Below, one piece after another: positions 42,897 to 57,161 of a DNA stretch of 64,000 nucleotides. The notes below the pieces were generated by a model that was not told the origin of the DNA, did not search any database, and saw nothing but the letters and a program-made list of their open reading frames with translations. Position numbers and translations under genes: made by a program. The DNA is from a virus. Numbering within the stretch: position 1 is the stretch's first letter; every line of letters starts with the position of its first letter. The DNA is taken from the IMG/VR virus record IMGVR_UViG_3300006149_000007, one strand, 5' to 3'.

Positions 42897-42971
42897 TTTT
42901 AAAATATTTAACAATATTTGACAATATTCTACTTTTGTGATAGACTTTAATATTATTATTACAAAAGGAGA

Positions 42972-43940
42972 ATGAGAATGAAAAAACTTATAGCTTTAAT
43001 AATGTGTAGTATTTTAATGTTAACAGGTTGTAAAAATGATAAAGCCAGCAATAAAAACGTATCGTCAAAGGAAACCAGCCAAAATAATATTGAAAAAGTT
43101 TTTGATGTAGACAAAAAAGGTTTAGAATCAAAAGGATATGAGAATCTTGCTGATATTGCATATGGAAGAATTACTGAAATAGAAGGAAAAATAACTGTAT
43201 TTTTGGCTTATTATCAAAACGAACCAGAAATATCATTTTATTTATTAGCAAAGATAATGCAATTATTAGATAATAATGTGAATTTTCTTATAACATGGGA
43301 CTCGAAAGATTATGATATTAATGAAGAAAAAATGAATAAAGTAGGAAAAGATAGTTTTGAATCTATATTTCCGAATGATTGGCATGATATAATTAAAAAA
43401 TCATTATCTGATGGAAGCAGTATAGAAGATTTTGTTTCTAAAAGTTCAGCAGATATGATTGATAAAGTCGCAGAGAAGTTTGTTTCTAAATATTTAGAAG
43501 ACAATCAGGCAGAGATTATTTCGCAGCAAGAGTATAATACAAATAGTGGTAAATTTTCTATGAAAATAGAAAAACACGAAGAAAAATTAAGTCTTGATAT
43601 TCAAGGAATTGAAAGTACAGAAGAAAAAGCATATTTGATGTTTTCTGCATTTTTGATTGAATTTAATAATATTGGAGATGAATTTAGTGATTGTTCCTGC
43701 ACAATAAGATATAATGATATTTATGTTCTTTACCAGCGCGTTAATGAAAATGTATCAATTATAAGTGGGCTTAACAAAGATGGCTCTTTTACTATGGATA
43801 TGCCAGACTGGGTCGATAAAAATATTAGTGATTTGAATATGGCGGAAGATGAAGTAAATAAATATCTTTTAGATTTAGAAACATATATAAAAAATTTTGG
43901 AAAATTATCAGGTTATAAAATGGGATATTTATTACAATAA
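42972..43940 (+). CDS. lipoprotein
   Basis: Signal peptide with lipobox MLTGC; AT-rich gene. Confidence 0.6.
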   Translation: MRMKKLIALIMCSILMLTGCKNDKASNKNVSSKETSQNNIEKVFDVDKKGLESKGYENLADIAYGRITEIEGKITVFLAYYQNEPEISFYLLAKIMQLLDNNVNFLITWDSKDYDINEEKMNKVGKDSFESIFPNDWHDIIKKSLSDGSSIEDFVSKSSADMIDKVAEKFVSKYLEDNQAEIISQQEYNTNSGKFSMKIEKHEEKLSLDIQGIESTEEKAYLMFSAFLIEFNNIGDEFSDCSCTIRYNDIYVLYQRVNENVSIISGLNKDGSFTMDMPDWVDKNISDLNMAEDEVNKYLLDLETYIKNFGKLSGYKMGYLLQ

Positions 43941-43965
43941 TAAAAAACTTAAACGGAGGATAACA

Positions 43966-44166
43966 ATGAAAAAATACATAATACGATTCTTAGTATTCTT
44001 GGTTGCATTTGCAATAATATTCTTGTCTCTGATAAATGCTAATAATCATCTTGAGAGTGGAGAATCTATAGCTTTTACTTGGATTGCAAGATTATACACT
44101 TATGCGCCATTAATCATTATATTACTTCTGGTGATTATTATTATATTGCTGATAAAGAAAAAGTAA
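43966..44166 (+). CDS. small two-TM membrane protein
   Basis: TM segments FLVFLVAFAIIFLSLI and LIIILLLVIIIILLI; ATG 43966 follows GGAGGA. Confidence 0.5.
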   Translation: MKKYIIRFLVFLVAFAIIFLSLINANNHLESGESIAFTWIARLYTYAPLIIILLLVIIIILLIKKK

Positions 44167-44212
44167 GAAACTTTTAATACGGGCAACCTTAAATTCATAT
44201 AGCGATTTATCA

Positions 44213-44236
44213 AGAGGGTAGAAATGCCCTCTTTTT
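44213..44236 (+). terminator. rho-independent terminator
   Basis: AGAGGG/CCCTCT stem followed by TTTTT. Confidence 0.6.
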
Positions 44237-44270
44237 GTATGCAAAAAATTTATAAAAAATTTACAATTCA

Positions 44271-44310
44271 CATAACTTATCATAAGTTATCATAACTTGT
44301 TATAATTTAT
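44271..44310 (+). promoter_or_regulatory. 10-bp-periodic operator-like repeats overlapping a promoter
   Basis: Four 10-mers: CATAACTTAT, CATAAGTTAT, CATAACTTGT, TATAATTTAT. They contain ATAACTTAT-C-ATAAGTTAT, a perfect palindrome, and TGtTATAAT, a -10 box at 44301-44306. Confidence 0.5.
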
Positions 44311-44413
44311 CACGAGCTATTTTGAAGCGCTTTGGCAGGATTTACAAGGTTATTCTTGTGTGATATGATGACGCAAAATCTACACAATAAAAATCATAAA
44401 GGAGGAAAATGAT

Positions 44414-45067
44414 ATGTTGGTGGAAACGAGAAAATTAAACAAAAGAGAAATCAATGTTGTTACAAGCCTTGATGTGTCTGAAACATTTGAGAAGGAACAT
44501 AGAAATGTATTAGCTGATATTCGCAATATTCAAAGCGAAATTAGTACCGCTGAATTTTCAGCTCTATTCTTTGAAGATGAATACAAGGCTTCTAACGGAA
44601 AGAAGAACCCCATGTATTACATGAACCGAGACGGGTTTACACTTCTTGTAATGGGTTATACCGGAGAAAAAGCCATGAGGTTTAAGTTGGCGTACATCAA
44701 TCAGTTTAACCAGATGGAGGAACTTCTCAAAGGCAAACTAATTGAAAGAGAAAAAGGAATTGTAGTTCGTCAGGCTTTTACAAAGGCATTAAAACAAAGT
44801 GGTGAAAATGAACGTATGCACAACCACGCATATTCGACTTACACTGACTTGATTTATAAAGTGGTATTTGGAAAGAACGCTAAACAGCTAAGAGAAGAAT
44901 ACGGAATAACCAAGCAGGATAATTTAAGGGATTTATTTGCACAGGAAGAGCTTGCAAAGGTAAAGTCTGTTGAAATGGTTGTCAGCGGTCTTATGGATTG
45001 CGGCTGGGGTTATGATGATATAAAAGCATTTGTAATGAATGGAGCGAAAAAGTTGATAGCAGCTTAG
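44414..45067 (+). CDS. Rha-family regulatory protein / antirepressor
   Basis: VVTSLDVSETFEKEHRNVLADIRNI...YYMNRDGFTLLVMGYTGEKAMRFKLAYINQFNQME. Confidence 0.7.
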   Translation: MLVETRKLNKREINVVTSLDVSETFEKEHRNVLADIRNIQSEISTAEFSALFFEDEYKASNGKKNPMYYMNRDGFTLLVMGYTGEKAMRFKLAYINQFNQMEELLKGKLIEREKGIVVRQAFTKALKQSGENERMHNHAYSTYTDLIYKVVFGKNAKQLREEYGITKQDNLRDLFAQEELAKVKSVEMVVSGLMDCGWGYDDIKAFVMNGAKKLIAA

Positions 45068-45099: not shown

Positions 45100-45158
45100 C
45101 AGCAAAGATAGGGTCGCTCCCGAAAACGTCAAGCCTTAGGCGCTGCTTTGCTGTTTTT
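45100..45158 (+). terminator. terminator-like long hairpin
   Basis: CAGCAAAG...CTTTGCTG followed by TTTTT. Confidence 0.4.
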
Positions 45159-45183
45159 ATAAACAAGGTGAATTTACAGAAAG

Positions 45184-45981
45184 GTGGTAAATACTGTGAA
45201 TGATTTAATTATTAAAAATGTACCGTTTTGCCAAGCTGAATTATTGGCGGTACAGGATAAGGAAACAGGAAAGATTTATGCAGGAATAAACTGCATATTA
45301 AAAGAACTTGGATTTGATGATAGGCAGATTGAGTACAGGAGAAATAAATGGAATGATGATAAAATTATTTCCAAAGGGGTACAAAAATTTTCGTACCCAT
45401 CAGAAAACAGAGGGTATCAAGAGACGTACTGCATAGACATTAAGAAACTTCCTATTGCTCTTGCTAAAATTGAGATTACGCCTAAAATGGAAAAGAAAAT
45501 ACCAGAACTATCTGTTAGATTAGAGAAGTATCAAGATGAATGTGCGGATATTTTGGCAGAAGCTTTTATCCCTATATTCAAGAAGAAATCAGCCATAGAA
45601 GAATTACAGGAAATACAAACCAGAGCTATTCTTGAGGTTAATGAGAAAGTTGGAGAAGTGGAAAACAGGGTAACAAAACTTGAAAACAACATGACAATAA
45701 CCCATGAGCAGATACAGATAATTAAGAATCGAGTAAATGCAAAGATTGTAAAAGATATTTTAGGCGGATATGAAAATAATGCTTATAATGATATACATTT
45801 AAGAGGAAAAGTTTACAGTCGATTCAACAAAGACTACTGTGATTACTTCCGCATAAACGCAAGAGCGAATACATTAGCTTCAAAATTTGATGAAGCTTTG
45901 CACTACATAGATATGTGGGAACCGGACACAAATATAAAGCTGACAATACAATATGCCAATGCTCAAATGAATATTTCTTAG
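45184..45981 (+). CDS. P22 Ant-like antirepressor (N-terminal AR domain plus ORF6C-like C-terminus)
   Basis: VPFCQAELLAVQDKETGKIYAGINCILKELGFDDRQ...LPIALAKIEI...LEKYQDECADILAEAF. Confidence 0.55.
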   Translation: MVNTVNDLIIKNVPFCQAELLAVQDKETGKIYAGINCILKELGFDDRQIEYRRNKWNDDKIISKGVQKFSYPSENRGYQETYCIDIKKLPIALAKIEITPKMEKKIPELSVRLEKYQDECADILAEAFIPIFKKKSAIEELQEIQTRAILEVNEKVGEVENRVTKLENNMTITHEQIQIIKNRVNAKIVKDILGGYENNAYNDIHLRGKVYSRFNKDYCDYFRINARANTLASKFDEALHYIDMWEPDTNIKLTIQYANAQMNIS

Positions 45982-46018: not shown

Positions 46019-46744
46019 ATGAAGAAATGTTTTAAACATATGCAAGAATTAAAAATTTTTGAGAAAGAAGAGTTTGGAGCAGTAAGAATTGTAATAGTTG
46101 AGGATGAACCGTGGTTTGTGGCGAGTGACATTTGCAAAGCATTGGAAATCCAGAATGTGACGCAGGCGGTTCAGAAGTTAGATGATGATGAACGGTCTAT
46201 GTTCAACATAGGGCGTCAAGGAAGTGCCAATTGCGTGAACGAATACGGATTATACAACCTTGTATTGTCGAGCCGAAAGAAAGAAGCTAGGGAATTTAAG
46301 CGGTGGATAACCCACGAGGTACTCCCATCAATCCGCAAGCATGGAATTTATGCAACCGATAATGTGATTGATGAAATTCTGAACAATCCTGACTTTGGTA
46401 TAGAACTTCTGACAAAATTAAAAGAAGAGCGAAAAGCAAGGGTTGAAGCAGAGAAAAAGAACGCTATCCTTATGCACGTCAATAAGACATACACCATGAC
46501 AGAAATAGCCAAAGAGTTAAATTTAAAATCAGCAACGGAGCTTAATAAAATACTTGCGGAAAAGAAAGTGCAATACAAGGTAAATGATACATGGGTACTA
46601 TACTCTGATTATAGCAATTTGGGTTATGAGGACATCAAACAGGAAGTTCTTGATAATGGAAAAGTTATCTATCATAGAAAAATAACGCAAACAGGAAGAA
46701 AATTTATACTGGGATTGTTTAATAATCAAAAATATGTGAAATAA
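46019..46744 (+). CDS. BRO-N / KilA-C antirepressor
   Basis: FGAVRIVIVEDEPWFVASDICKALEI...EFKRWITHEVLPSIRKHGIY is a Bro-N domain. The C-terminus is a KilAC-like HTH. Confidence 0.75.
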   Translation: MKKCFKHMQELKIFEKEEFGAVRIVIVEDEPWFVASDICKALEIQNVTQAVQKLDDDERSMFNIGRQGSANCVNEYGLYNLVLSSRKKEAREFKRWITHEVLPSIRKHGIYATDNVIDEILNNPDFGIELLTKLKEERKARVEAEKKNAILMHVNKTYTMTEIAKELNLKSATELNKILAEKKVQYKVNDTWVLYSDYSNLGYEDIKQEVLDNGKVIYHRKITQTGRKFILGLFNNQKYVK

Positions 46745-46766: not shown

Positions 46767-46796
46767 CGGCGGCATCTAAAATAGATGCTGCTTTTG
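46767..46796 (+). terminator. rho-independent terminator
   Basis: CGGCGGCATCT/AGATGCTGCT stem followed by TTTT. Confidence 0.6.
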
Positions 46797-46860: not shown

Positions 46861-47244
46861 ATGATTCTGGAATACAGGGAAGATAATGCTGACGATTTTA
46901 TATGGCATATGATTGAATCAGACCATATAGCGAAAAGCTGTTTCCACATTGAAGAAGATATGAAAATGTTGTCCGAAAAATCAGGAGACAGCGTATCTGA
47001 CAATTTTCATGAAATACACAACATTGCAAAGAAGATGATGAACAAGGCAGGATATTGTTCATATTTTTACACACATCTTCATGCCACAAACAAAGAAAAA
47101 ATAACGTACATAAAAGAAATTGTAATGATTGTACTGGACAGGAATAAAGGAACTGAAATTCATTTCTTTGATTCAGAATATCCGTTCAGAATTTGCTCTA
47201 AAGACGGAACAATAGTAGAAGAATCAATGCATTTTAAAATTTAA
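46861..47244 (+). CDS. hypothetical protein
   Basis: 127-aa ORF with RBS AGGAGG. Confidence 0.5.
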   Translation: MILEYREDNADDFIWHMIESDHIAKSCFHIEEDMKMLSEKSGDSVSDNFHEIHNIAKKMMNKAGYCSYFYTHLHATNKEKITYIKEIVMIVLDRNKGTEIHFFDSEYPFRICSKDGTIVEESMHFKI

Positions 47245-47246
47245 AC

Positions 47247-47269
47247 TGGCTCCCCGTTTTGAGGAGCCA
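47247..47269. terminator. bidirectional hairpin between convergent genes
   Basis: TGGCTCC/GGAGCCA stem. Confidence 0.45.
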
Positions 47270-47599: not shown

Positions 47600-48469
47600 A
47601 TGAAAAAACTAATATATAATGAAAATACCAAAGAAATAGATGTTATGGAGCAAAAAAATTGTTCAGAGAAAGAGAAACCGAAAGGATTTAAAGCATGGTT
47701 AAAAAATAATAAGATTTTCTTTGAAATTTTTTCTTTATTTTTCGTTGGAGTTATGAGTATTATATTGTCTGTGGTTGGATTACGAATAAATAAAAAAACT
47801 GCGGAAATATATCAAAAGCAATTAAAAATCGAGGAAGATAATAGAGAACCACTTTTTCAATTAAAGACCGAATTGATTAATGAAAACATTGAAAAAAATC
47901 AAAAAGAATACCGACATATAATAAAAAATGAAGGAGGGAGTATTTCATATGCTACTGCAATGATTAGAAAATATATAGAAGTTGGAATTATATCCATAGA
48001 AGGTAAAGAAATAATTGAACCAATTATTTTTAGAGCTCCAATTTCTGATAGACATTATACAGAAACAAGATTTGGCGTTCAGTATAATGAGTTTGATAAA
48101 AATTTTGTTTTGCATGAAATTGATTGCAAAGAAGATATGCTTACATTTAGTGATGAGTTATCAGGTAGGATTGCATTACTTATAGATGATACTAGGTTCT
48201 ATAGTAGTGGTATACACACATATATAGAAATTGTTTATAATGATTATCAAAACAAGCAAGTTAAAGAAAAATATGAAATAAATAATGTTTATTTTACTAA
48301 AGGCGATAAACAATATTATACTAAAAGCATGTCACCAGAGTATGATGAAGATAATATTATATATTTAGATGAAGTAAATGAAAATAATATGGAATCTATT
48401 GCCAAACAGGCGAAAAAAGAGTTTGACCGACGCTGGAATTTAGAAGAAAATCAAAATATTGAGAAATAA
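47600..48469 (+). CDS. single-pass membrane protein
   Basis: 289 aa with TM segment IFFEIFSLFFVGVMSIILSVVGL; very AT-rich. Confidence 0.55.
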   Translation: MKKLIYNENTKEIDVMEQKNCSEKEKPKGFKAWLKNNKIFFEIFSLFFVGVMSIILSVVGLRINKKTAEIYQKQLKIEEDNREPLFQLKTELINENIEKNQKEYRHIIKNEGGSISYATAMIRKYIEVGIISIEGKEIIEPIIFRAPISDRHYTETRFGVQYNEFDKNFVLHEIDCKEDMLTFSDELSGRIALLIDDTRFYSSGIHTYIEIVYNDYQNKQVKEKYEINNVYFTKGDKQYYTKSMSPEYDEDNIIYLDEVNENNMESIAKQAKKEFDRRWNLEENQNIEK

Positions 48470-48504
48470 AAATATTTATTTTTCAACTTTCTTTCCGGTA
48501 CTAC

Positions 48505-48533
48505 CTGACAAATATTCCCTATCATGGTATAAT
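48505..48533 (+). promoter_or_regulatory. promoter P2 of a repeated promoter family
   Basis: CTGACA, 17-bp spacer, TGgTATAAT. Confidence 0.55.
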
Positions 48534-48556
48534 ACAAAAAAACAAAAGAAAGGGAG

Positions 48557-49036
48557 ATGTACATGGCGTTAATTAAGTGTCCTGAATGTGGAAAGATGAT
48601 ATCCGATATGACAGATAAATGTACTGATTGTGGATATCCTATATATTTAATGAAAAGAACAATAAAAAAATGCCCATTTTGTGGCGGAATAAATTATGGA
48701 TATGATTCAACTTGCAAGAACTGTGGCGGAGAATTAGAATTAGAGCCAGAAGACACAAAATTGAATAGTGTTTCGCAATCATATAGAATTAAACACCAAA
48801 GCGAAAAGATTCAGGAAAATATACGTGTTGTCACAATATACGGAAAAGCAGTAAATAAATACGTAGCGTTACTATTGTGTATATTTTTTGGATATTTTGG
48901 TGCACATAAATTTTATGAAGGAAAAACAATCATGGGATTAATCTATTTATTTACATTAGGATTGTTTGGATTTGGTTGGCTTATAGATATTATAATTATT
49001 GCGACAAATCCGAATCCATATTATGTACAAACATGA
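48557..49036 (+). CDS. double zinc-ribbon plus TM2-domain membrane protein
   Basis: CPECG..CTDCG and CPFCGG..CKNCGG, then LLCIFFGYFGAHKFYEGKTIMGLIYLFTLGLFGFGWLIDIIII, a TM2 domain. Confidence 0.65.
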   Translation: MYMALIKCPECGKMISDMTDKCTDCGYPIYLMKRTIKKCPFCGGINYGYDSTCKNCGGELELEPEDTKLNSVSQSYRIKHQSEKIQENIRVVTIYGKAVNKYVALLLCIFFGYFGAHKFYEGKTIMGLIYLFTLGLFGFGWLIDIIIIATNPNPYYVQT

Positions 49037-51271: not shown

Positions 51272-52213
51272 ATGAAACGAAAGAAATTTATTAATTTGCT
51301 AATGTCTTTGTTGTTAATATGTTCTCTGTCTGCATGTTCAAAAAAATCAGAAAATAAACCAGAACAACAAAAAGAAACCGAAAGTCAATCAAAAGAAGAA
51401 ATCAAAAAATCAGAAGATGACATTACTGAGTTTGAAAAGATAAAGGAGTCAATTTTTGAAGAAGCAAGAAAAGAATCAAATTCTGATGAAACTTTATTGT
51501 ATTTGGTGCAATTATTTGAAGAAACTTATTCATTAGTTTCAAAAGTAAATACTTGGGAGGAGTTTATAGAAATAGGAGACGACAAAGGAATATTTACTTA
51601 TGCAATAGCTTGTTTTGTAGAAAAATCAAAAGATGGAACAATATTACATGAAGCAGGAGAAGAAGCTTGGCAGGCAATAGAAGCTTTATATAATAATGAT
51701 GGTTCATACAAAACTCATATAGAAAAAGTAAAATCCATTTGGGAAGAAAGCGGAAATTTTTTATATGAATCGATTTATCGTGAAGGTCAATACAAAGTAG
51801 GAGTTGATATTCCTTCGGGCGAATATGTGATTTTTTCGGGTTATACAAATTCGGGTTATTTTTCACTTACATCAGATTCTAACGGGAACGATATAATAGC
51901 AAATGAAAACTTTGATTATAATTCAATAATAACTATATATGACGGAGAATATATAGAGCTATCGAGAAGCAAAGCGGTTCCTATATCAGAAGTTACAAGC
52001 CTTCCAAAAGATAAATCGGATATGTTTAAAATCGGAGTTCATTTGCCTGCTGGAGAATATAAACTTATAGCCGATGAAGTTGGTGGGTATTATTGTGTAT
52101 ATAATGATAATAGGCAGCAAGACATAGAATCTAATGATAATTTTAGTGGGCAATCTTATGTTACTGTTAAAGACGGTCAATATTTAGTTTTGTCAAGATG
52201 CAGAATAGAGTAA
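51272..52213 (+). CDS. lipoprotein with two G.Y.VG.DIP.GEY repeats
   Basis: Lipobox LSAC. Repeats QYKVGVDIPSGEYVIF and FKIGVHLPAGEYKLI resemble those in the 49183 protein. Confidence 0.6.
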   Translation: MKRKKFINLLMSLLLICSLSACSKKSENKPEQQKETESQSKEEIKKSEDDITEFEKIKESIFEEARKESNSDETLLYLVQLFEETYSLVSKVNTWEEFIEIGDDKGIFTYAIACFVEKSKDGTILHEAGEEAWQAIEALYNNDGSYKTHIEKVKSIWEESGNFLYESIYREGQYKVGVDIPSGEYVIFSGYTNSGYFSLTSDSNGNDIIANENFDYNSIITIYDGEYIELSRSKAVPISEVTSLPKDKSDMFKIGVHLPAGEYKLIADEVGGYYCVYNDNRQQDIESNDNFSGQSYVTVKDGQYLVLSRCRIE

Positions 52214-52248: not shown

Positions 52249-52278
52249 TTGACAAAATGTAGCAACATAATATATAAT
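52249..52278 (+). promoter_or_regulatory. sigma-A-type promoter
   Basis: TTGACA, 18-bp spacer, TATAAT. Confidence 0.5.
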
Positions 52279-52314
52279 TAAATCGTAACCAAAATTTGAA
52301 AGGAGGTTGATAGC

Positions 52315-52494
52315 GTGTCACCCAGAACGGGGCAAAAAATCAAAGACAACCCGAAAGATTTTATGCTTAGAACAAGACTTGATAGCGAAACACTTGAAAA
52401 ATTGGATTATTCTGCTGAAAAGTTTGGCGTAAGTCGGTCAGAGGTTGTCAGAAATGGTATCGAAAGTGAATACCAAAAAGCAAGAGAACAGTAA
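52315..52494 (+). CDS. ribbon-helix-helix protein (copy 1, 59 aa)
   Basis: GTG start after AGGAGG. Reads VSPRTGQKIKDNPKDFMLRTRLDSETLEKLDYSAEKFGVSRSEVVRNGIE. Confidence 0.5.
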   Translation: MSPRTGQKIKDNPKDFMLRTRLDSETLEKLDYSAEKFGVSRSEVVRNGIESEYQKAREQ

Positions 52495-52624
52495 AAGAGC
52501 AATCGGCATAACTTGGCGGTCAGCGATTGCTCAATCCCAACACCCTAAAAAAGTGTCTATTGATATAATACCACTTTTTTTAGGGAATGTCAAAAACATT
52601 TTTTAGAAAGGTGGTATTTTTTTA

Positions 52625-52720
52625 ATGAGCAGCAAAGAAAACAACGAAGAAACTGAAAACATCACACCAGAACCAATCACAACCGAACATCTTGCTCTTG
52701 AGGTTTTGAAAATTTTTTAA
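52625..52720 (+). pseudogene. truncated copy of the 53100 gene
   Basis: MSSKENNEETENITPEPITTEHLALEVLKIF stop. It shares TTEHLALE(I/V)LK with the 53100..53372 product but lacks the TM segment and C-terminus. Confidence 0.4.
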
Positions 52721-52729
52721 AATTAGGGG

Positions 52730-52770
52730 TTGACTTGTGCCCGTACTAATGTTAATATAAATGTACGGGC
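52730..52770 (+). promoter_or_regulatory. promoter with flanking 8-bp inverted repeat
   Basis: TTGACT, 17-bp spacer, TAATAT. GCCCGTAC (52739-46) and GTACGGGC (52763-70) bracket the -10 box. Confidence 0.5.
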
Positions 52771-52787
52771 GAAAGTGAGGTGATAAA

Positions 52788-52967
52788 GTGTCGCCACGTA
52801 CAGGCAGACCAACAGCCAATAAAAAGACAGAACGGTTAGAGATACGTCTTGCACCTGATGAATTAGAACTGATAGAGAAATGTTCTGAAATTCTTGGAAT
52901 TAGTAAAACAGATGTAATAAATAAAGGTGTAAAATTGGTGAAGGCTGAAATTGACAAGCAAAAATAA
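52788..52967 (+). CDS. ribbon-helix-helix protein (copy 2, 59 aa)
   Basis: VSPRTGRPTANKKTERLEIRLAPDELELIEKCSEILGISKTDVINKGV. Confidence 0.5.
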   Translation: MSPRTGRPTANKKTERLEIRLAPDELELIEKCSEILGISKTDVINKGVKLVKAEIDKQK

Positions 52968-53099
52968 GAGTAATCGCTCAACCTACCACAGCATTGCGAT
53001 TACCCTTGTTGGCACCAGAGGTTTCCCACTGATAAATCTAATTATATCAGATATGGAAGCCTCTTTCAAGAACTTTTTTTGAAGGAGGTATTATTTTAA

Positions 53100-53372
53100 A
53101 TGAATGACAATGAAAAGATTACAACCGAGCATCTCGCTCTTGAAATCCTGAAGCAGGAGCAGGAAAAATCAAAGGCGAAGAACGTCGGCATTATCAGCTT
53201 AACCGTAGCAGTAGTCATCATCGCTATCGGAATGGCGCTTATCAACTACCAGAACGACCACGAATGGCGTGCTTTATTCGATTCCTACGACTTTATCTCA
53301 CAAGACGGTGAAGGCTTCAACAACGTTAATTCTGGCACACAAGGCAATCTGGATAATTCAGACGCAGAATAG
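53100..53372 (+). CDS. single-TM small protein
   Basis: 90 aa with TM segment IISLTVAVVIIAIGMALI. Confidence 0.5.
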   Translation: MNDNEKITTEHLALEILKQEQEKSKAKNVGIISLTVAVVIIAIGMALINYQNDHEWRALFDSYDFISQDGEGFNNVNSGTQGNLDNSDAE

Positions 53373-53382
53373 GGGGTGTGGC

Positions 53383-53568
53383 ATGAAAAGAACAGTAAAG
53401 CAGAGAGTTGATGAATACGTCAAGAAACACCCTGAAGTCCATAGTAGCCTTTTGGTTATGGATATGAATGATATAAGGGAACTCGGAAACATGGTTGATG
53501 TTATCAGTACCGCATTTGCTTATGGCTACATGAAGGGCGCAAAGGCGAAGAAAGGCGGTGCAAGATGA
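53383..53568 (+). CDS. hypothetical protein
   Basis: 61 aa from ATG 53383, after GGGGG. Confidence 0.4.
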   Translation: MKRTVKQRVDEYVKKHPEVHSSLLVMDMNDIRELGNMVDVISTAFAYGYMKGAKAKKGGAR

Positions 53569-53672
53569 TAGCTTATAAAGCAGCTTTATTAAAACTTCTT
53601 GACCGCTTGTCAGACAAGTCAATCAAGCGTTTGTATCAGCTTGCAGAGTATCTTTATGTTTATAAAGAGTAG
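53565..53672 (+). CDS. small hypothetical protein (35 aa)
   Basis: ATGA coupling to the upstream gene. Confidence 0.25.
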   Translation: MIAYKAALLKLLDRLSDKSIKRLYQLAEYLYVYKE

Positions 53673-53685
53673 GAGGTGTGAAAAA

Positions 53686-54471
53686 ATGAACGATATGATT
53701 GTAAAGAATGTTGATGTTCTTGGCGATAGCATTATGGCGGCGAAGGATAGCGACGAAAATGTGTATGCAGGAGTAAGCTATTTTTGCAACGCTCTTGGTA
53801 TGAGCAGAGGTCAAAAGAACAGACAAGTCATAAATGTCCAGAAGGACGAAACTTTAAAGAGAGGGTGTATCAAATTAGGTGCAGGGGTACTTGATGAAGG
53901 CAATGAAACAATCGCATTAAGAATTGACTTTATACCTTTATGGCTTGCTAAAATTTCCATTACGGACAAGACAAAGCGAGAAAATCCCGAACTTGCCGAC
54001 AAACTCTTAGAGTACCAGTTAAAGGCAAAGGACATTCTTACGGAAGCATTTATGCCAAAACAAAGTATGCCACAAACAACAGACGGAAAAATAGCCTTGC
54101 TTGCGCAGGGGCATACGGAACTGAAAGCAGAAGTTGACGAAATCAAGGTGGATTTACAGGCTTTGAAACTCGACTTGCCGCTTATGCCGGTAGAAGCTGA
54201 TGAAATTTCAAATCGAATCAAAAAGCGTGGTGTAGAAATTCTCGGCGGTAAATCATCATCGGCATACAATGACCGCAGTATCAGACAGAAATTATATAAT
54301 AACTATTATTTCTACCTGAAACAGAATTTTAATGTCGGCTCGTATAAAGCCATAAAACGGAATAGACGCAATCAGGCGTTAGAAATTATTGAAGAATATA
54401 AGCCACCGTTGTTTCTGAAAGAAATGATAGAAGAATCGAATACGGCGAAGAAAGGCGTTTCTAATGACTGA
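53686..54471 (+). CDS. P22 Ant-like antirepressor (second copy of this architecture)
   Basis: VYAGVSYFCNALGMSRGQ...IPLWLAKISI...LLEYQLKAKDILTEAF. The C-terminus is ORF6C-like (ILGGKSSSAYND). Confidence 0.55.
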   Translation: MNDMIVKNVDVLGDSIMAAKDSDENVYAGVSYFCNALGMSRGQKNRQVINVQKDETLKRGCIKLGAGVLDEGNETIALRIDFIPLWLAKISITDKTKRENPELADKLLEYQLKAKDILTEAFMPKQSMPQTTDGKIALLAQGHTELKAEVDEIKVDLQALKLDLPLMPVEADEISNRIKKRGVEILGGKSSSAYNDRSIRQKLYNNYYFYLKQNFNVGSYKAIKRNRRNQALEIIEEYKPPLFLKEMIEESNTAKKGVSND

Positions 54472-54637
54472 TAAGGTACATGAATATTCAGAAAAGCACA
54501 TCGGGTTTCTTACTGAATGGGAACATGGAGAGCCGGTTGGAAGTTGGATTAACAACGAAGGTTTCCTGTGTATCATTTACGAAGACGGCGCATGGTGGCA
54601 TTACAAGGTAGAAAATGATAAATTGGTATGGTGGTAG
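54464..54637 (+). CDS. small Trp-rich protein (57 aa)
   Basis: Start overlaps the upstream stop. Below the ORF-track cutoff. Confidence 0.3.
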   Translation: MTDKVHEYSEKHIGFLTEWEHGEPVGSWINNEGFLCIIYEDGAWWHYKVENDKLVWW

Positions 54638-54688: not shown

Positions 54689-55027
54689 ATGAAAATAAGA
54701 AATTTGACACCCCACGATATTACGGTTTTTGCGGATGATTATAATGAAATGCCTTATATTATCCCTACTGCTGGTATTGTTGCAAGAGTTTCCACTACAC
54801 AAGAAACTGTTGGAAATATTAATGGTATACCGGTACAAAAGGTAAAATATGGTAGTGTGGAAAACTTACCAGAACCACAGGAAGATGTAGTATTTATAGT
54901 ATCCCAAATGGTTTTATCCGCATTAAACGGAAGTCGAACAGATGTATTTGCTCCGGATACAGGGAAAGGAGCTGTACGAGACAAAGAAGGTAAAATTTTA
55001 GGGACCCTTAATTTGATAGTTTTATAA
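54689..55027 (+). CDS. hypothetical protein
   Basis: 112 aa from ATG 54689. Confidence 0.45.
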   Translation: MKIRNLTPHDITVFADDYNEMPYIIPTAGIVARVSTTQETVGNINGIPVQKVKYGSVENLPEPQEDVVFIVSQMVLSALNGSRTDVFAPDTGKGAVRDKEGKILGTLNLIVL

Positions 55028-55072
55028 TAAAATAAGCTGAGCTATCAGCTATACAGGCAGAAAGGGAAAACT

Positions 55073-55237
55073 ATGGTAGCAGTTAAAGTATATCGTTGTG
55101 GTCCTCATATTTTCCGAAATAAAGAAGAACGTAACAGGCATGCGGCAGAGCATGGACAACACGGATATGGAAACTATGTATATTGCACAGTTGACATAAA
55201 AAATATCGGAAAAACGCTATTTTATTATTATAAATAA
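55073..55237 (+). CDS. small hypothetical protein (54 aa)
   Basis: RBS AAAGGGA upstream. Below the ORF-track cutoff. Confidence 0.3.
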   Translation: MVAVKVYRCGPHIFRNKEERNRHAAEHGQHGYGNYVYCTVDIKNIGKTLFYYYK

Positions 55238-55252
55238 GAGGAGGCGTGTGTT

Positions 55253-55456
55253 ATGAAAATTTATATTATAACAGCGGAAACGCTGATGGATAAAGATGAG
55301 CGTGCTGTTGAGTTTACTTTGCTTGGAGCGTATACGAGCTTAAGAAAAGCAAAGAAAAAGCACAAAGAAGCAGAAAAAAAATTTGTGATTGCGAAGCTGA
55401 CAACAGTTAATAGCAGAACAGATTGTTGGGAGCAAATCGGACACTATTACGAATAA
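55253..55456 (+). CDS. hypothetical protein
   Basis: 67-aa ORF with RBS GAGGAGG. Confidence 0.4.
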   Translation: MKIYIITAETLMDKDERAVEFTLLGAYTSLRKAKKKHKEAEKKFVIAKLTTVNSRTDCWEQIGHYYE

Positions 55457-55471
55457 AAGAAAGGAAATGGT

Positions 55472-56227
55472 ATGGCAAGACCACCAAAACAGGGACTTGA
55501 CTACTTTCCTTTTGATACTGATTTTTTTCAGAATAAAAAAATTAAAAAGTTAAAAGCAGAGTATGGTGCAGATGGTATTGCTATCTATATGTACCTGCTC
55601 TGCGAAATATATAAAAACGGGTACTACATCATAGCTGACGAAGATTTTATAGATTCTATGGCTGACGACCTGAGAATGAACGTTAATAAAATAAACCTAG
55701 TTTTGAGATTCTTGCTGGGGCGGTCACTGTTTGACAACACACTTTTCCAGTCGGACACTGTCTTGACTAGCGTATCTGTACAGAGGCGTTATCAGTTCGC
55801 AGTCCAAGAGCGTATAAATGACCATAGTGCAAATATAGAGGATTTCTGGCTGTTAAAAAAATCAGATACAGAAACCCTTGGACAAGTGCACCCATTTTTA
55901 AAAAATTCCGAGGAAAAATTCGCAAAGGAAAGTAAAGAAAATAAAAGTAAATTAAATGAAAGTATATTAGAGCGTAAAGAGGGGAAAACTCTCACGCCCG
56001 AGGAAAAAGAACGGCTAATAAAAGAATATGGTGTTGAGGTAACGGAAGACTACATACGGCGTACCACACAATACCATTGTTGCAGTTATGCCACAATCAG
56101 GAAATGGATAGCGGAGGACAAAGAGAAGGAACAGAGCCGAAAGCCAAAAAAGAATACCTTTAACAATATTCCACAACATGATTATGATTTTGATGAATTG
56201 GAAAGAAAACTATTAAAAAGAAACTAG
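55472..56227 (+). CDS. DUF4373-type (Lin1244-like) replisome-organizer N-terminal domain protein
   Basis: MARPPKQGLDYFPFDTDFFQNKKIKKLKAEYGADGIAIYMYLLCEIYKNGYY. Confidence 0.55.
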   Translation: MARPPKQGLDYFPFDTDFFQNKKIKKLKAEYGADGIAIYMYLLCEIYKNGYYIIADEDFIDSMADDLRMNVNKINLVLRFLLGRSLFDNTLFQSDTVLTSVSVQRRYQFAVQERINDHSANIEDFWLLKKSDTETLGQVHPFLKNSEEKFAKESKENKSKLNESILERKEGKTLTPEEKERLIKEYGVEVTEDYIRRTTQYHCCSYATIRKWIAEDKEKEQSRKPKKNTFNNIPQHDYDFDELERKLLKRN

Positions 56228-56233
56228 ATTTTC

Positions 56234-56262
56234 TTGACATAAAGATTTTATAGTGGTATTAT
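56234..56262 (+). promoter_or_regulatory. sigma-A-type promoter (extended -10) with ~180-nt leader
   Basis: TTGACA, 17-bp spacer, TGgTATTAT. Confidence 0.5.
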
Positions 56263-56441
56263 ACAAATTAATTGAATAAATTCAGATAAATCATGATTAA
56301 TTCATGTGTAAGATACAGTTTTAATTTATTTTTAGTGTTCGGAGATTCGAAACCCTAGCACATCGGCAGACATTTTTGTCTGTTTGGTGAGCTGGGGTTT
56401 TCCTTTTAGAAAAAATTATCAATATCAGGAGGAATAATATT

Positions 56442-57134
56442 ATGAATGAGATTATCGAAACAGCAAACAGGACACCAATTGAGATTGCATTACAGATTGA
56501 TGACGAAGGGTACACTACATCAAGAAAATTGTACTTTTGGTTATACGAAAATGGTACCCATTATGCAAAATGGCTTAAAGAAAACGTGACAGAAAATCCG
56601 TTTGCAGAAGAAAATGAGTTTTCGCCAATCTTGCGAAAACCCCAAAAACAGGGAGGTAGACCGACAGAGGACTACAAAATCACAGCTTCACTTGCAAAAA
56701 GAATTTCTATGGCTGATAAGTCAGAGCGTGGAGAACAAGCAAGAAATTATTTCATAGGTTGCGAACAGGCACTTGTTAGAATTGCAGAAGAAAGACACAA
56801 AACAGAGATGGAAAGAGCCAAAGGAATCGCGGTAAGACAGGCATTAACAAAGGCAATTCAGCAATCAGGCGAAAATGACCGTATGCACGGACATGCTTAT
56901 TCAACATATACAGACGTGATGTATAAATCTATATTTGGAAAAAATGCAAAACAGTTACGAGTAGAATATGGAATTACAAAAAAAGATAATTTAAGAGATA
57001 TTTTTTCTGAAGAGGAATTAAATCGGGTACAAAATGCAGAAATGATGATTAGTTCTCTTATTGGGTATGGTTGGGGTTTTTGTGATATAAAAGATTTCAT
57101 GTTAAATAAGGCAAATAAGATGATTACAGAATAA
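56442..57134 (+). CDS. AntA-type antirepressor with the Rha-paralog C-terminal domain
   Basis: HYAKWLKENVTENPFAEENEF...GGRPTEDYKITASLAKRISMADKSERGEQARNYFI. The C-terminus is about 65% identical to that of the 44414 protein, by eye. Confidence 0.6.
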   Translation: MNEIIETANRTPIEIALQIDDEGYTTSRKLYFWLYENGTHYAKWLKENVTENPFAEENEFSPILRKPQKQGGRPTEDYKITASLAKRISMADKSERGEQARNYFIGCEQALVRIAEERHKTEMERAKGIAVRQALTKAIQQSGENDRMHGHAYSTYTDVMYKSIFGKNAKQLRVEYGITKKDNLRDIFSEEELNRVQNAEMMISSLIGYGWGFCDIKDFMLNKANKMITE

Positions 57135-57161
57135 AATTATTACTTATGGAAGGAAAAACGT

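Follow-up and report, generated by a model that had tools for sequence, protein, structure and literature searches.

The window analysed here, the whole 64,000-nucleotide stretch of IMG/VR virus record IMGVR_UViG_3300006149_000007, comes from a gut-type, long-tailed phage. We infer its host and lifestyle solely from an integrase gene (3886-5016) and CI-like HTH genes elsewhere in the phage; no match to the phage was found in GTDB species genomes. The tape-measure gene (TMP; 36889..42896), identified by PhageMin_Tail and TMP PHROGs, lies on the + strand, as do all features below unless stated otherwise. Its stop (42896) and the start of a small tail gene (57162-57530) bound an interval of 14,265 bp (42897-57161). 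This small gene encodes a 122-aa tail-tube-fold protein (DUF6711), a minimal Dit candidate: its AF2 model has a pLDDT of 86, and its Foldseek matches are tube and baseplate tube-fold proteins (TM 0.4-0.57). It is followed by the gene of the Tal/receptor-binding protein (57540-61778; 1412-1415 aa, Peptidase_S74 C-terminus). An earlier note on this DNA had placed these boundaries correctly, and its premise that Dit usually comes directly after the TMP holds in Anaerostipes phage AC844P2, in IMG/VR loci L003 and L004, and in Clostridium phage Maintenon. It had also counted about 27 co-oriented ORFs in the interval. The non-structural block is real, but the public calls give 24 genes, 23 on the + strand and one on the minus strand (47276-47467). 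Pfam, PHROGs, and lipobox scans bore out its list of contents: lipoproteins, membrane proteins, antirepressor families, T5orf172, RHH, P22-Ant-like, DUF4373, and AntA. For the island proteins, we use "antirepressor" as a family label assigned from sequence.

The TMP gene is split by a 263-nt group I intron (38889-39151), with exon 1 at 36889-38888 and exon 2 at 39152-42896. Against Rfam Intron_gpI, the intron scores 32.5 bits, where gathering requires 50. Joining the exons gives one unbroken ORF (1914 aa), whose junction (SETI/NQPANQ) agrees with uninterrupted homologues. At the intron position, L023 and L041, two of the related loci, have a GIY-YIG homing-endonuclease gene between two TMP ORFs. 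HNH genes lie at 16511 and 21133.

An arrangement of this kind, in a record of metagenomic origin, could arise from unrelated contigs joined at 42.9 kb and/or 57.1 kb, and many assemblies break at 53279-53306. Yet both junctions are crossed at 100% identity by an 86.6-kb JGI contig and by separate Logan assemblies from other projects. The TMP/lipoprotein junction is spanned by the 100%-identical contigs L016-L018 (JGI and Logan assemblies, several projects), the AntA/DUF6711 junction is spanned by twelve further contigs, and the TMP-lipoprotein and antirepressor-DUF6711 adjacencies also occur in relatives. We give a negligible probability to a chimeric assembly, a concern raised in the earlier note.

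The first part of the island (42.9-52.2 kb) holds envelope, antirepressor-like, and defence genes. The conserved gene at its left edge (42978..43940) encodes lipoprotein1, a 320-aa protein with a signal peptide and the lipobox LTGC. Directly 3' of the TMP stop, it has a sigma-70-type promoter (42918..42946; TTGACA, 17 nt, TG-extended TAGACT). The family is rare (63 representatives among 1.84 billion proteins), and homologues lie directly 3' of the TMP in L023 (60% identity), L025 (46%), and L041 (59%). The promoter elements are kept in these three loci (83% column identity) even though the proteins are 46-60% identical. The gene has a GC3 of 0.17. The AF2 model of the protein (pLDDT 80) gave no informative fold match in the PDB, and no characterised exclusion protein matched any of the island envelope proteins. 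Throughout the close lineage, lipoprotein1 comes directly after the TMP, and similarity in the N-terminal two thirds of the protein goes in step with that of the TMP, as might be expected if it and the small island proteins were lineage-specific components of tail or baseplate assembly, core rather than accessory. This is very unlikely: the protein carries a signal peptide and lipobox, and its gene has a conserved promoter of its own and a very low GC3; Dulem virus 39, with homologous TMP, DUF6711, and Tal, lacks lipoprotein1; and all the other cassettes are replaceable. We regard lipoprotein1 as a candidate superinfection-exclusion protein.

Downstream lie the gene of a 66-aa membrane protein with two TM segments (43966..44166), an intrinsic terminator (44212-44233), and the gene of the Rha-type antirepressor-like protein Rha-b (44414..45067; Pfam Phage_pRha, 108.6 bits), whose C-terminal domain is common to Rha-a (36179) and AntA (56442). 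The next gene, Ant-a (45196..45981; domain match and public gene call), encodes an antirepressor-like protein with P22_AR_N and ORF6C. Its int-alpA-type structured leader RNA (45101..45168) matches Rfam RF02996 at 38.3 bits, over the gathering score of 35.8, and a covariance model built for this analysis at 72.7 bits, with compensatory pairs. Leaders of this type lie 5' of several accessory genes, and a second DnaD-like gene elsewhere in the phage (20040-21131) has the same kind of leader. The gene of a Bro-N + KilA-C (ANT; KilAC) protein (46019..46744) and a terminator (46768-46792) precede a convergent pair, in which a 127-aa gene (46861-47244) and a 63-aa gene (47276-47467, minus strand) share a bidirectional terminator hairpin (47247-47269); other genes take the place of this pair in L036. 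Two membrane-protein cassettes follow, each with its own promoter: one for a 289-aa single-TM protein (from 47600; promoter 47544) and one for a 157-aa protein with a Zn-ribbon and a TM2 domain (48563, block end 49036; promoter 48505). Both (47600..49036) are replaced in L036, and Zn-ribbon membrane proteins recur at the island site in Dulem virus 39, L023, L025, L027, and L041.

This part also encodes a 637-aa homologue of SNIPE/PD-Lambda-1 (49183..51096), with DUF4041 and a T5orf172/GIY-YIG nuclease domain (PADLOC PD-Lambda-1, E 4.6e-107; Pfam DUF4041/SNIPE, T5orf172, and MUG113). The nuclease SNIPE is documented to cleave phage DNA while it is being injected, to associate with tape-measure proteins, and to leave prophage induction unharmed (PMC13190303). 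Whereas E. coli SNIPE has a transmembrane anchor, no TM segment was found in the island homologue (49183..51096), for which we assume membrane targeting. The protein is 91% identical in L036; L041 has instead an Mrr_cat nuclease with a related N-terminus. The N-terminus of the SNIPE homologue contains two copies of a repeat that is common to lipoprotein2 (51272..52213; 313 aa, lipobox LSAC). The latter is 52% identical to a 409-aa lipoprotein of the L027 island, and an HNH protein stands in its place in L036.

The second part (52.2-57.1 kb) opens with a cassette (52249..52494) in which a consensus promoter (TTGACA, 18 nt, TATAAT) precedes RHH1, a 59-aa ribbon-helix-helix repressor-like gene (52315-52494; Pfam RHH_1, phrog_876). 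The RHH_1 match, at 21.1 bits, is just past the cutoff of 20.5; RHH1 is 97% identical in L036. A predicted antisense small-RNA unit on the minus strand (52490..52593; promoter 52593-52565, hairpin 52532-52497 and U-run) would give an RNA some 65-70 nt long that ends at the stop codon of RHH1. The RHH2 cassette (52702..53117) likewise comprises a promoter, a 59-aa RHH-like gene (52788-52967), and its own predicted antisense unit (52958..53069, minus strand; promoter 53069-53041, hairpin 53003-52970 and U-run). Relative to L036, it is an insertion or duplication, and a 99-aa membrane-protein gene is cut into a 31-aa remnant (52625-52720) and a 90-aa ORF. The promoter hexamers, TG motif, and compensated terminator stem of the antisense units are kept in five copies from four phages. 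Unlike sar of phage P22, the predicted RNAs have no overlap with the ribosome-binding site of the gene that follows, so their target and mode of action (interference or pairing) are uncertain. A tight operon follows (53100..54637), encoding the 90-aa TM protein (53100), 61-aa and 35-aa proteins, Ant-b (53686-54471; the second antirepressor-like protein with P22_AR_N+ORF6C), and a 57-aa protein. L025, L036, and L041 carry its homologues in matching order, and Ant-b is 95% identical in L036. The next block (54689..56227) encodes an Unk_01-type small protein (PADLOC, "sometimes fused to CARF"), 54-aa and 67-aa (DUF7336) proteins, and a Lin1244_N/DUF4373 DnaD-like protein of the "replication initiator" type (55472-56227; 95% identical in L041, 68% in L036). 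In the last cassette (56234..57134), a promoter (56234-56262) and a structured leader of 180 nt, which includes a terminator-like hairpin (56350-56400), precede an AntA-type gene (56442-57134; 82% identical in L023) that ends 27 nt before DUF6711.

The two parts differ in composition, as claimed earlier: GC is 0.303 in the first and 0.372 in the second, compared with 0.395 for the structural genes. Within the first part, composition is again mosaic, with GC3 of 0.17-0.23 in envelope and defence genes and 0.30-0.37 in antirepressor genes (0.3-0.5 in structural genes). Intergenic gaps are also longer, with a median of 67 bp in the island against 14 bp in the head-tail genes. Near-consensus promoters are predicted in island gaps at 52249, 47544, 48505, 56234, and 42918, and none was found in the intergenic gaps of the structural block (23-42.9 kb). 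Convincing + strand terminator hairpins are predicted at 44212, 46768, 47247-47269 (bidirectional), 53059, and in the last leader. The earlier claim of many internal promoters and terminators holds for these sites, but the overall counts for the whole region are only about 2 sd above those of shuffles (100 promoter-like sites vs 80.6+/-9.5; 15 terminator-like sites vs 8.2+/-3.0). The analysis shows a non-structural accessory island, with deviant composition and its own predicted promoters and terminators, that physically interrupts the tail genes. How late transcription crosses it is a legitimate question, although not one specific to the island, because terminator-like hairpins are also found inside the structural operon (28608, 34522, and 36840).

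The same junction is occupied in relatives. All those with TMPs 50-92% identical have an island there, of 2 to >10 kb and with the same order of gene classes: 10.4 kb in L041, at least 10 kb in L036, 5.05 kb in L025, 2.1 kb in L028, at least 4 kb in L023, and at least 5.5 kb in L027. In Dulem virus 39, it consists of one Zn-ribbon membrane gene (0.54 kb), and more distant phages have no island between TMP and Dit. The conserved order runs from a lipoprotein with its own promoter to membrane and Zn-ribbon proteins and a defence nuclease (SNIPE, or Mrr_cat in L041), then to one or more RHH repressors, each with a convergent antisense unit, a P22-Ant-type protein, a DnaD-like protein, a last antirepressor-like protein, and Dit. 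Wherever the junction was captured, the gene before DUF6711 is antirepressor-like (Bro-N in L036, Bro-N/ORF6C in L025, Rha in L028, AntA in L041); L023 also ends in AntA, its contig stopping short of DUF6711. Cassette swaps relative to L036 and L041 could be mapped at the nucleotide level, and N-terminal domains are also exchanged between relatives. As judged from such comparisons of sequence, the island is shown to evolve as cassettes are replaced or inserted and N-terminal domains swapped. Relatives do carry genes at this position, then, but not the uniform core content that the earlier note had considered. Because same-junction islands, class order, and swapped cassettes are found across relatives, this is an old, lineage-typical hypervariable region, expanded here, and not one recent insertion.

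The earlier note had read 52.2-57.1 kb as the early region of another element. A discrete foreign element (satellite, transposon, or integrative) inserted once, with this part as its early and replication region, would account for the Lin1244_N gene, regulators, and small ORFs, which look like an early region, and for a composition unlike the flanks. That composition is, however, mosaic gene by gene. No recombinase, integrase, transposase, or relaxase domain was found in the island ORFs scanned with Pfam and PHROGs, which comprised all but a few very small ones, and no direct or inverted repeats flank the island. Moreover, RHH, the 61-aa protein, Ant-b, Lin1244_N, and AntA are at the same junction in relatives with TMPs 54-92% identical, where single cassettes differ, and the phage has the second DnaD-like gene, with a similar leader, elsewhere. 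We find a single foreign insertion very unlikely; for the RHH and P22-Ant part, an immI-like module of secondary immunity is a better reading than a foreign early region.

Another reading makes the antirepressor-like, T5orf172, and HNH genes mainly selfish, homing-type, or otherwise self-propagating; they would gather at any site that tolerates insertions and do little good to phage or host, and the island would be a graveyard or landing pad, not an organised functional locus. Selfish elements do abound in the genome (the TMP intron, the GIY-YIG gene there in relatives, and the two HNH genes), T5orf172 is a GIY-YIG-like domain, there are six Rha/Bro/Ant/AntA paralogues, N-terminal domains are swapped in situ, and frameshifted copies are occasionally seen in other samples (L010 and L020). 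Yet the ORFs are intact, and SNIPE is an experimentally validated defence family. Class order, the lipoprotein promoter, the RHH genes, and the antisense units are kept across diverged relatives, and this conservation of order and regulatory elements argues for selection. We therefore give the selfish reading a small, though not trivial, chance.

The closest known system is the ant moron of phage P22, in which sieA, mnt, arc, sar, and ant lie between genes 16 and 9. It comes in ten types in sixteen genomes and affects read-through into the tailspike gene (PMC8022706; PMC2629481). We consider it likely that the island is a lineage-specific, greatly expanded equivalent of this moron, hypervariable and independently transcribed, between TMP and Dit/Tal. 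It is not a new kind of system but a much enlarged counterpart of that variable region. The island would be tolerated at one late-operon junction, with the component for DNA injection (TMP) on one side and the tip that recognises the host (Dit and Tal/RBP) on the other. A first layer could be a prophage-expressed barrier to DNA entry: the lipoproteins and small membrane and Zn-ribbon proteins may act as superinfection-exclusion factors at the envelope, while the SNIPE-type GIY-YIG nuclease, or the Mrr-type one filling its slot in a relative, would cleave the DNA of incoming siphoviruses where it is injected. A second layer would be an immI-like secondary immunity circuit, in which RHH repressors made from strong promoters, with the convergent antisense RNAs, may silence the downstream antirepressor operon of P22-Ant type during lysogeny. 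The several Rha, Bro, AntA, and DnaD-like proteins could be further regulators or antirepressors, probably directed against resident or competing prophages. During lytic growth, the tail-tip genes might be reached by terminator-resistant late transcription that crosses the island, in the way that P_late transcription crosses the P22 ant moron, or from the promoter and leader of the last cassette (56234-56441).

A second, smaller moron lies between the tail chaperone genes and the TMP (36074..36841), the position of the HK97 gp15 moron (PMC3594210). It consists of an int-alpA-type leader (36074-36141) and Rha-a (36179-36841), with a terminator at 36840-36863. In relatives, this site holds T5orf172 (L023), YjcQ (L028), or Rha (L041, 96% identical).

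The interval between the stop codon of the tape-measure protein (TMP) gene and the start of a gene encoding a DUF6711 protein measures 14,265 bp (42897-57161). It contains 24 genes in the public gene calls of identical contigs, 23 on the plus strand and one on the minus strand (47276-47467). The earlier note had described about 27 co-oriented ORFs; the island of genes stands, with fewer members and one of them in the opposite orientation. To the left lies an ORF matching tape-measure PHROGs (39249-42896, plus strand; phrog_1686, E 1.6e-43), with an ORF carrying PhageMin_Tail upstream of it (36889-38922). The right boundary is the DUF6711 protein itself (57162-57530, 122 aa), which is followed by a 1412-1415-aa protein (57540-61778) with similarity to tail and Tal PHROGs at its N-terminus and a Peptidase_S74 domain at its C-terminus, and then by a small gene, a phrog_1401 protein and a GH25 endolysin. 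Domain searches confirmed the gene inventory drawn up from the sequence (lipoproteins, antirepressors, T5orf172, RHH, DUF4373, and AntA proteins). They identified two lipoproteins with lipoboxes (lipoprotein1, 42978-43940, and lipoprotein2, 51272-52213), four membrane proteins, a 637-aa DUF4041+T5orf172 protein (49183-51096), two RHH-type proteins of 59 aa each (RHH1, 52315-52494, and RHH2, 52788-52967), and, further, Rha, P22_AR_N+ORF6C (45196-45981), and Bro-N+KilA-C proteins in the left part, and a second P22_AR_N+ORF6C protein (53686-54471), a Lin1244_N (DUF4373) protein, and AntA (56442-57134) in the right part. A small protein of the island (54689-55027) matches the PADLOC family Unk_01 ("unknown small protein, sometimes fused to CARF"; E 5.5e-23).

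The island differs from the structural genes in composition and in spacing. Its GC content is 0.327, against 0.395 in the structural block, and it divides into two parts as had been proposed, the first one AT-rich (0.303 at 42.9-52.2 kb, then 0.372 at 52.2-57.1 kb). The left part is itself a mosaic: five cassettes (lipoprotein1, a 289-aa membrane protein, a Zn-ribbon/TM2 protein, the DUF4041+T5orf172 protein, and lipoprotein2) have a GC3 of 0.17-0.23, and the three antirepressor-like genes lying among them have a GC3 of 0.30-0.37. The median intergenic gap is 67 bp in the island and 14 bp in the head-tail genes, with gaps of at least 80 bp making up 12 of 25 in the former and 4 of 20 in the latter.

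Distal tail proteins (Dit) have a tail-tube-like N-terminal fold, form a ring between the tube and Tal, and are encoded by a gene adjoining Tal. The DUF6711 gene is always directly upstream of Tal. The AF2 model of its product (pLDDT 86.4) produced Foldseek matches to tube, baseplate tube-initiator, and Hcp-fold proteins (TM 0.4-0.57, best E 7e-4), a fold class that is also that of tube and terminator proteins. The Dit proteins of SPP1 and TP901-1 are twice the size of this 122-aa protein, and PDB sequence searches with DUF6711 and with the Tal N-terminus were empty. The model is consistent with a minimal Dit without being diagnostic of one, and we treat DUF6711 as the Dit candidate.

The comparison of the same junction across phages revealed how variable it is. 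Dit normally comes directly after TMP, as the earlier note stated, and so it does in Anaerostipes phage AC844P2 and Clostridium phage Maintenon, where the small tail genes and Tal lie within a few bases of the TMP gene. The same is true of two IMG/VR loci (L003 and L004), which have only the Tal gene in common with the window (81-93% nucleotide identity, from 57540) and show the order TMP, 16-bp gap, DUF6711-like gene, and Tal, without an island. In Dulem virus 39 (41-46% for TMP, 44% for DUF6711, and 51% for the Tal N-terminus relative to the window), a single gene for a 113-aa Zn-ribbon membrane protein separates TMP and DUF6711. The closer metagenomic relatives, which we gathered using homologues of TMP, DUF6711, and the lipoproteins, all carry an island at the TMP/DUF6711 junction; with Dulem virus 39, seven relatives have differing islands at this same place. 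The island of L028 has 2.1 kb (lipoprotein and Rha) and that of L025 has 5.05 kb (a lipoprotein1 homologue, DUF4352, a Zn-ribbon protein, RHH, P22_AR_N, two 61-aa genes, and Bro-N/ORF6C). That of L023 has at least 4 kb (a lipoprotein1 homologue at 60%, Zn-ribbon/S26, YjcQ, Rha, and AntA at 82%) and that of L027 at least 5.5 kb (a TM protein, a Zn-ribbon TM protein, a 409-aa lipoprotein 52% identical to lipoprotein2, another Zn-ribbon TM protein, Mrr_cat, and more genes, the last one RHH). The two largest belong to L036 (at least 10 kb, with 77-93% nucleotide identity to the window in shared segments) and L041 (10.4 kb and 17 genes; TMP 90-92% and DUF6711 86% at the amino acid level). Broader searches were less productive: megablast of 38-62 kb against GenBank phages gave no match, nothing was retrieved by IMG/VR scans with the TMP C-terminus and with DUF6711, by GTDB genome scans with DUF6711 and lipoprotein alignments, or by a JGI metagenome scan with the lipoprotein alignment, and the IMG/VR scan with the Tal N-terminus returned only loci sharing the Tal gene. 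One further locus (L024, JGI 3300010163, 4506-17000) has a TMP homologue 63% identical to the part of TMP encoded by exon 2, followed by minus-strand genes and RepA_N/ParA plasmid-like genes instead of Dit and Tal; it could be a phage-plasmid or another arrangement.

Across the relatives, the order of gene classes is constant: a lipoprotein directly 3' of TMP, membrane and Zn-ribbon proteins, antirepressor-like genes, a nuclease, RHH, a small membrane protein with a 61-aa gene, an ORF6C-type antirepressor, small genes, Lin1244_N, a last antirepressor-like gene, and DUF6711. Within this order the cassettes are exchanged. The nuclease slot is occupied by the DUF4041+T5orf172 protein in the window and L036, and by Mrr_cat in L041 and L027. 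The window and L036 differ by at least six cassette replacements, which include a 127-aa/63-aa pair, two membrane proteins, the Unk_01-type gene (whose place in L036 is taken by a 95-aa gene unrelated to it), lipoprotein2 (an HNH protein in L036), AntA (Bro-N in L036), and a 416-bp insertion (52702-53117) that brought RHH2 and split the gene of a 99-aa membrane protein. This last cassette resembles an insertion or duplication (window 52625-53372 compared with L036 5881-6180), and it leaves 31 aa of the 5' part as a remnant (52625-52720), together with an ORF of 90 aa whose N-terminus was re-created, ITTEHLALE being repeated. Relative to L041, N-terminal domains were swapped (Rha/T5orf172 and P22_AR_N/ORF6N), with the C-terminal domains and upstream leaders retained. 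The comparison that had been suggested for finding island-less variants did uncover junctions with a small island or none.

An island of this kind could result from the joining of unrelated contigs in a chimeric assembly. Exact-protein look-ups retrieved numerous contigs of several projects from Logan, JGI, and NCBI MAGs, among them a JGI contig of 86.6 kb; their identity to the window is 99.97-100%. The junction of TMP with lipoprotein1 is spanned by L016-L018, and the stretch from AntA through DUF6711 to Tal by L006-L016. These independent assemblies cross both junctions and exclude a chimera, so the island is not an assembly artefact. They represent one genotype, and while they confirm the assembly, none of them is an island-less variant. 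At least six independent assemblies of this genotype begin or stop inside a 28-nt overlap (53279-53306) that occurs once in the window. We found neither an alternative context for it nor a repeat accounting for the recurrent break. Its cause may be heterogeneity of the population or a repeat at another place in the metagenomes.

The island could also be a single foreign mobile element inserted at the TMP/Dit junction, or contain the captured early region of another element, as the earlier note had supposed for its right-hand part. We disfavour this: no recombinase was found in the island ORFs scanned against Pfam and PHROGs, no flanking repeats or att sites were found around the island, it is a mosaic in composition, and relatives keep the right-hand genes at this junction. 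A motif repeated at both island edges, TTTAACAATATT, was considered and rejected, its six occurrences (2.2 expected) being reached in 2 of 100 shuffles and not above chance. The reading of the interval as an accessory island is supported.

Near-consensus promoters of the sigma-70 type are predicted in gaps of the island at 52249 (12/12), at 47544, 48505, and 56234 (11/12 with TG), and at 42918, and none was found in the intergenic gaps of the 23-42.9 kb block. The promoter between the TMP stop and lipoprotein1 shows 83% column identity across four phages and is better kept than the flanking proteins. Hairpin/U-run terminators are predicted on the plus strand at 44212, 46768, and 53059, and a bidirectional one lies between the convergent gene pair (47247-47269). 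It had been claimed that internal promoters and terminators interrupt the late operon. The promoters do sit in the gaps, but the counts over the whole island exceed those of shuffles by just about 2 sd, and terminator-like hairpins occur within the structural operon too (28608, 34522, and 36840). The AntA stop and the DUF6711 start are separated by 27 nt, with no terminator in this gap. The AntA leader folds with z = -3.7 and has a long hairpin (56350-56400) followed by UUUUCCUUUU; a tRNA-like remnant considered in this region was dropped on inspection in favour of the hairpin. The candidate routes of late transcription to DUF6711 and Tal are read-through from upstream and the promoter with leader at 56234-56441. 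Searches of 10-24 kb with Pfam and PHROGs recognised no Q-, ArpU-, RinA-, or sigma-like late regulator, and no antiterminator or late activator.

The right part of the island contains the two RHH genes. RHH1 matches Pfam RHH_1 (21.1 bits, cutoff 20.5), RHH2 has sub-threshold matches to NikA/TacA RHH proteins, and both match phrog_876 (E 1e-12 to 1e-13). Their profile matches CopG, TacA, and MazE in the PDB, all weakly, and no direct similarity of either protein to Arc or Mnt was detected. Each RHH gene is followed immediately, on the opposite strand, by a predicted promoter (TTGACA/TTGAAA, 17 nt, TGnTAT(A/T)AT) and, about 45 nt past it, by a hairpin with a U-run that ends at the stop codon of the RHH gene. 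Five copies from four phages show these elements either invariant or compensated, in surroundings that have diverged. They are predicted to produce convergent antisense RNAs of 65-70 nt (in the window, about 52558 to 52490 and about 53034 to 52960), which would overlap no ribosome-binding site. Downstream of the RHH/antisense units, there is a tightly packed operon with a P22_AR_N antirepressor. P22_AR_N is clear in both of its copies (51.3 bits at 53686-54471 and 51.8 bits at 45196-45981, cutoff 30.7), and the C-terminal half of these proteins is ORF6C instead of the C-terminal domain of P22 Ant.

The 637-aa nuclease aligns almost over the full length of the PADLOC model of PD-Lambda-1 (PDLC03976, E 4.6e-107, positions 50-470 of 491). 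Its DUF4041 domain (PF13250, 50.5 bits, cutoff 27) is now called "SNIPE" in Pfam, and residues 522-614 match, at the family level, the nuclease domains T5orf172 (66.9 bits) and MUG113 (69.1 bits). SNIPE is a membrane-bound GIY-YIG nuclease of E. coli that cuts phage DNA during injection, associates with tape-measure proteins, and defends against diverse siphoviruses, leaving prophage induction unaffected (Saxton et al., Nature 2026; PMC13190303). The homologue of the window shares with SNIPE the DUF4041 domain, the C-terminal GIY-YIG/T5orf172 nuclease, and a variable N-terminal "adaptor" region. It has no TM anchor, no 19-residue window reaching a Kyte-Doolittle value of 1.6. This does not exclude it from the family, 34% of whose members are without a TM helix and rely on membrane-targeting domains of other kinds (PMC13190303). 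It belongs to this TM-less minority and, unlike SNIPE, is encoded by a phage, in a tail operon and close to TMP. A further difference is that its N-terminus (49183-49962) holds in duplicate a repeat of about 85 aa (G.Y..G.(D/E)IP.G.Y...), which is found also on a secreted lipoprotein and on the Mrr nuclease of a relative: in two copies in lipoprotein2 (E 5e-4), in the L027 lipoprotein (7505-8734), and at the N-terminus of the L041 Mrr_cat nuclease that occupies the SNIPE slot (14152-15354, E 5e-11). The repeat is thus present on proteins predicted to be outside as well as inside the cell. It may be a sensor or adaptor module.

Lipoprotein1 belongs to a rare family. Its model (pLDDT 80) has no meaningful neighbour in the PDB (TM 0.2 or less), PDB sequence searches with the lipoprotein profiles were empty, and its public start codon differs from that of the 322-aa form. 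A structural role in the tail, next to whose genes it lies, is unlikely given its signal peptide and lipobox, its own promoter, its low GC3, and its absence from Dulem virus 39. Our working model for both lipoproteins is Ltp, the superinfection exclusion lipoprotein of the Streptococcus thermophilus phage TP-J34 (PMC3952083), likewise a prophage-encoded surface lipoprotein of a Gram-positive siphovirus. No similarity of Ltp to either of them in sequence or fold was detected. Ltp is encoded in the lysogeny module, whereas the lipoproteins of the window are in the tail operon, and their function in exclusion is a presumed one.

The closest known counterpart of the island is found in P22-like phages, which carry immI (mnt, arc, sar, ant) and sieA between genes 16 and 9 (PMC2629481, PMC8022706). 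Named the ant moron by Villafane et al. 2008, it was found to exist as ten types among sixteen genomes (PMC2629481; see also the phage L genome paper, PMC8022706), and it affects the frequency with which P_late transcription reaches the tailspike gene (PMC8022706, PMC2629481). Both regions are inside a late operon, with genes of DNA-delivery proteins on one side and that of the receptor-binding protein on the other. Both vary in length and content among relatives whose structural genes remain syntenic, and at both the last tail gene is reached by late transcription only through the region. They share small RHH repressors, a P22_AR_N antirepressor, and membrane proteins that block DNA entry, a role that those of the window may have. 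In P22, the small antisense RNA sar controls ant, and Ant inactivates the prophage repressor; the antisense RNAs of the window are predictions that may correspond to sar. By analogy, the island would not be required in morphogenesis. The differences are also clear. The phage of the window is a low-GC siphovirus with a 1914-aa TMP and not a podovirus, and its island has 24 genes in 14.3 kb compared with 0-6 genes in P22-like phages. It includes several antirepressor-like paralogues, SNIPE (Mrr in relatives), a DnaD-like gene, and leaders of the int-alpA type. Its RHH cassettes are in tandem on the same strand, unlike the divergent mnt and arc, and its antisense units are 3' of the RHH genes and leave the next ribosome-binding site uncovered.

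The moron definition of Hendrix and Juhala, said to go back to Juhala et al. in 2000 and to phages HK97 and HK022, reportedly includes an own promoter and terminator, deviant composition, absence from relatives, and expression from the repressed prophage. The island has predicted promoters (42918, 47544, 48505, 52249, and 56234) and terminators (44212, 46768, and 47247-47269) of its own, and its base composition deviates. Single cassettes come and go among the window, L036, and L041, and of the region as a whole a single gene remains in Dulem virus 39 and nothing in AC844P2, L003, and L004. The position in the tail operon is a further likeness to the morons of HK97 and HK022, as are, with HK97 gp15, products that are envelope proteins likely to block injection. 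The island differs from these single-gene morons in being a cluster of about a dozen transcription units, and it has no sequence relationship to gp15. From P22 comes the further property of a hypervariable site in the late operon, here the succession of TMP, island, and DUF6711-Tal. Because topology, gene classes, and evolutionary behaviour match those of P22, we read the island, by analogy, as an ant-moron-type region that has expanded to at least four times the size and belongs to an unrelated type of virion. Its lipoproteins, membrane proteins, and SNIPE would form a barrier to DNA entry expressed by the prophage, and the RHH repressors, antisense RNAs, and Ant an antirepressor circuit similar to immI, to which Rha, Bro, AntA, and DnaD-like proteins may add further regulators. 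The anatomy of the island, its pattern among relatives, and the assignment of its genes to families are observed; expression during lysogeny, activity in exclusion or defence, the antisense RNAs, and the targets of the antirepressors are what we infer in this scheme. The novelty is a very large version of a known phage region, with no new principle demonstrated.

A second, smaller moron (36074-36863) lies between the tail chaperone genes and TMP and consists of an int-alpA leader, a Rha gene (36179-36841), and a terminator. The site contains Rha also in L041 (96%), T5orf172 in L023, and YjcQ in L028. It is exactly the site of the original HK97 gp15 exclusion moron (PMC3594210). The leaders are three-way-junction RNAs of the int-alpA type (RF02996), found at 19995-20070, 36074-36141, and 45101-45168 (plus strand) and at 7465-7532 (minus strand), with a weak one at 3799-3858 (plus) and others in L041 (11519-11586 and 12337-12404) and L023 (13549-13628). 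They are directly 5' of accessory and regulatory genes, in the window a DnaD-like gene, the Rha gene of the second site, the left P22_AR_N gene, a minus-strand 274-aa gene, and possibly the integrase. Compensatory changes affect 10 of the 17 pairs, and a TG-extended -10-like motif is just upstream of the copies at 36074 and 45101 (the most similar pair in the window) and of both L041 copies. After the closing stem come a U-rich run (present in the Rfam consensus and clear in the 45101 copy) and then a Shine-Dalgarno sequence, so that these RNAs may serve as attenuator-like leaders close to a promoter. Those of L041 lie where cassettes meet.

The TMP gene (36889-42896) is split by an ORF-less group I intron of 263 nt (38889-39151). 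Such introns are marked by a catalytic core, a U ending the 5' exon, a terminal G, and restoration of the host gene in frame. The match to Rfam RF00028 (E 1.9e-6 locally) reaches 32.5 bits, short of the gathering score of 50. The 5' exon ends in T and the intron in G, and removing the intron results in a single 1914-aa ORF whose junction matches intact homologues. In L023 and L041, a 324-aa GIY-YIG/NUMOD1 homing-endonuclease gene is present between two TMP ORFs at the position of the intron. Since the genome carries this intron and HNH genes, it is partly plausible that the island is purely a graveyard of selfish genes; this would leave the conserved order, the promoters, and the antisense units unexplained.

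The expanded ant-moron-type reading accommodates a bolder version, which we consider improbable. The junction would be an organised, exchangeable arsenal and not a passive dump, with cassettes swapped at conserved boundary elements (int-alpA leaders and inter-domain linkers), the repeat of about 85 aa acting as a sensor or adaptor shared by effectors (the GIY-YIG SNIPE, the Mrr nuclease, and secreted lipoproteins) that all act on incoming tape-measure/injection complexes, and RHH/antisense units gating the transcription of the tail tip. If true, a single regulated module would connect superinfection defence with prophage warfare and with the stoichiometry of the tail. More generally, the analogy extends the ant moron concept, a hypervariable secondary-immunity/exclusion region before the receptor-binding gene, to uncultivated low-GC siphoviruses. 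The interval from TMP stop to DUF6711 start is a defined address for mining prophage-borne entry-defence genes, one that holds a phage-encoded TM-less SNIPE and, in the same slot of a relative, an Mrr nuclease with a related N-terminal domain. The natural series of islands (0, 0.5, 2, 5, 10, and 14 kb) provides a model for late-operon read-through and tail-protein stoichiometry, and the antisense units and int-alpA leaders are candidate conserved regulatory RNAs.

Other loci of the window were also of interest. A set of genes resembling RNA repair (19341-23681) surrounds a phage tRNA-Cys (19919-19992) and includes an RNA ligase (19341-19913, phrog_14301) and a protein with the HAD_SAK_2 "Swiss-army-knife RNA repair" domain (23211-23681). 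HNH endonucleases are encoded at 16511-17221 and 21133-21657. A GP3_package-like protein (17724-18368) is encoded 5 kb upstream of the large terminase (23745), a distance that suggests another accessory insertion between packaging genes. Given that the matching JGI contig has 86.6 kb, the genome probably exceeds 64 kb by far and has its modules in an unusual order. The lysogeny/early region starts directly after the endolysin gene (63576-63899 in the window, minus strand; 10299-14249 in L006, a contig of the same genotype) and contains two divergent HTH_3 CI/Cro-like genes, another Rha, and an FtsK/SpoIIIE-like ATPase; the tyrosine integrase is far from it (3886-5016).
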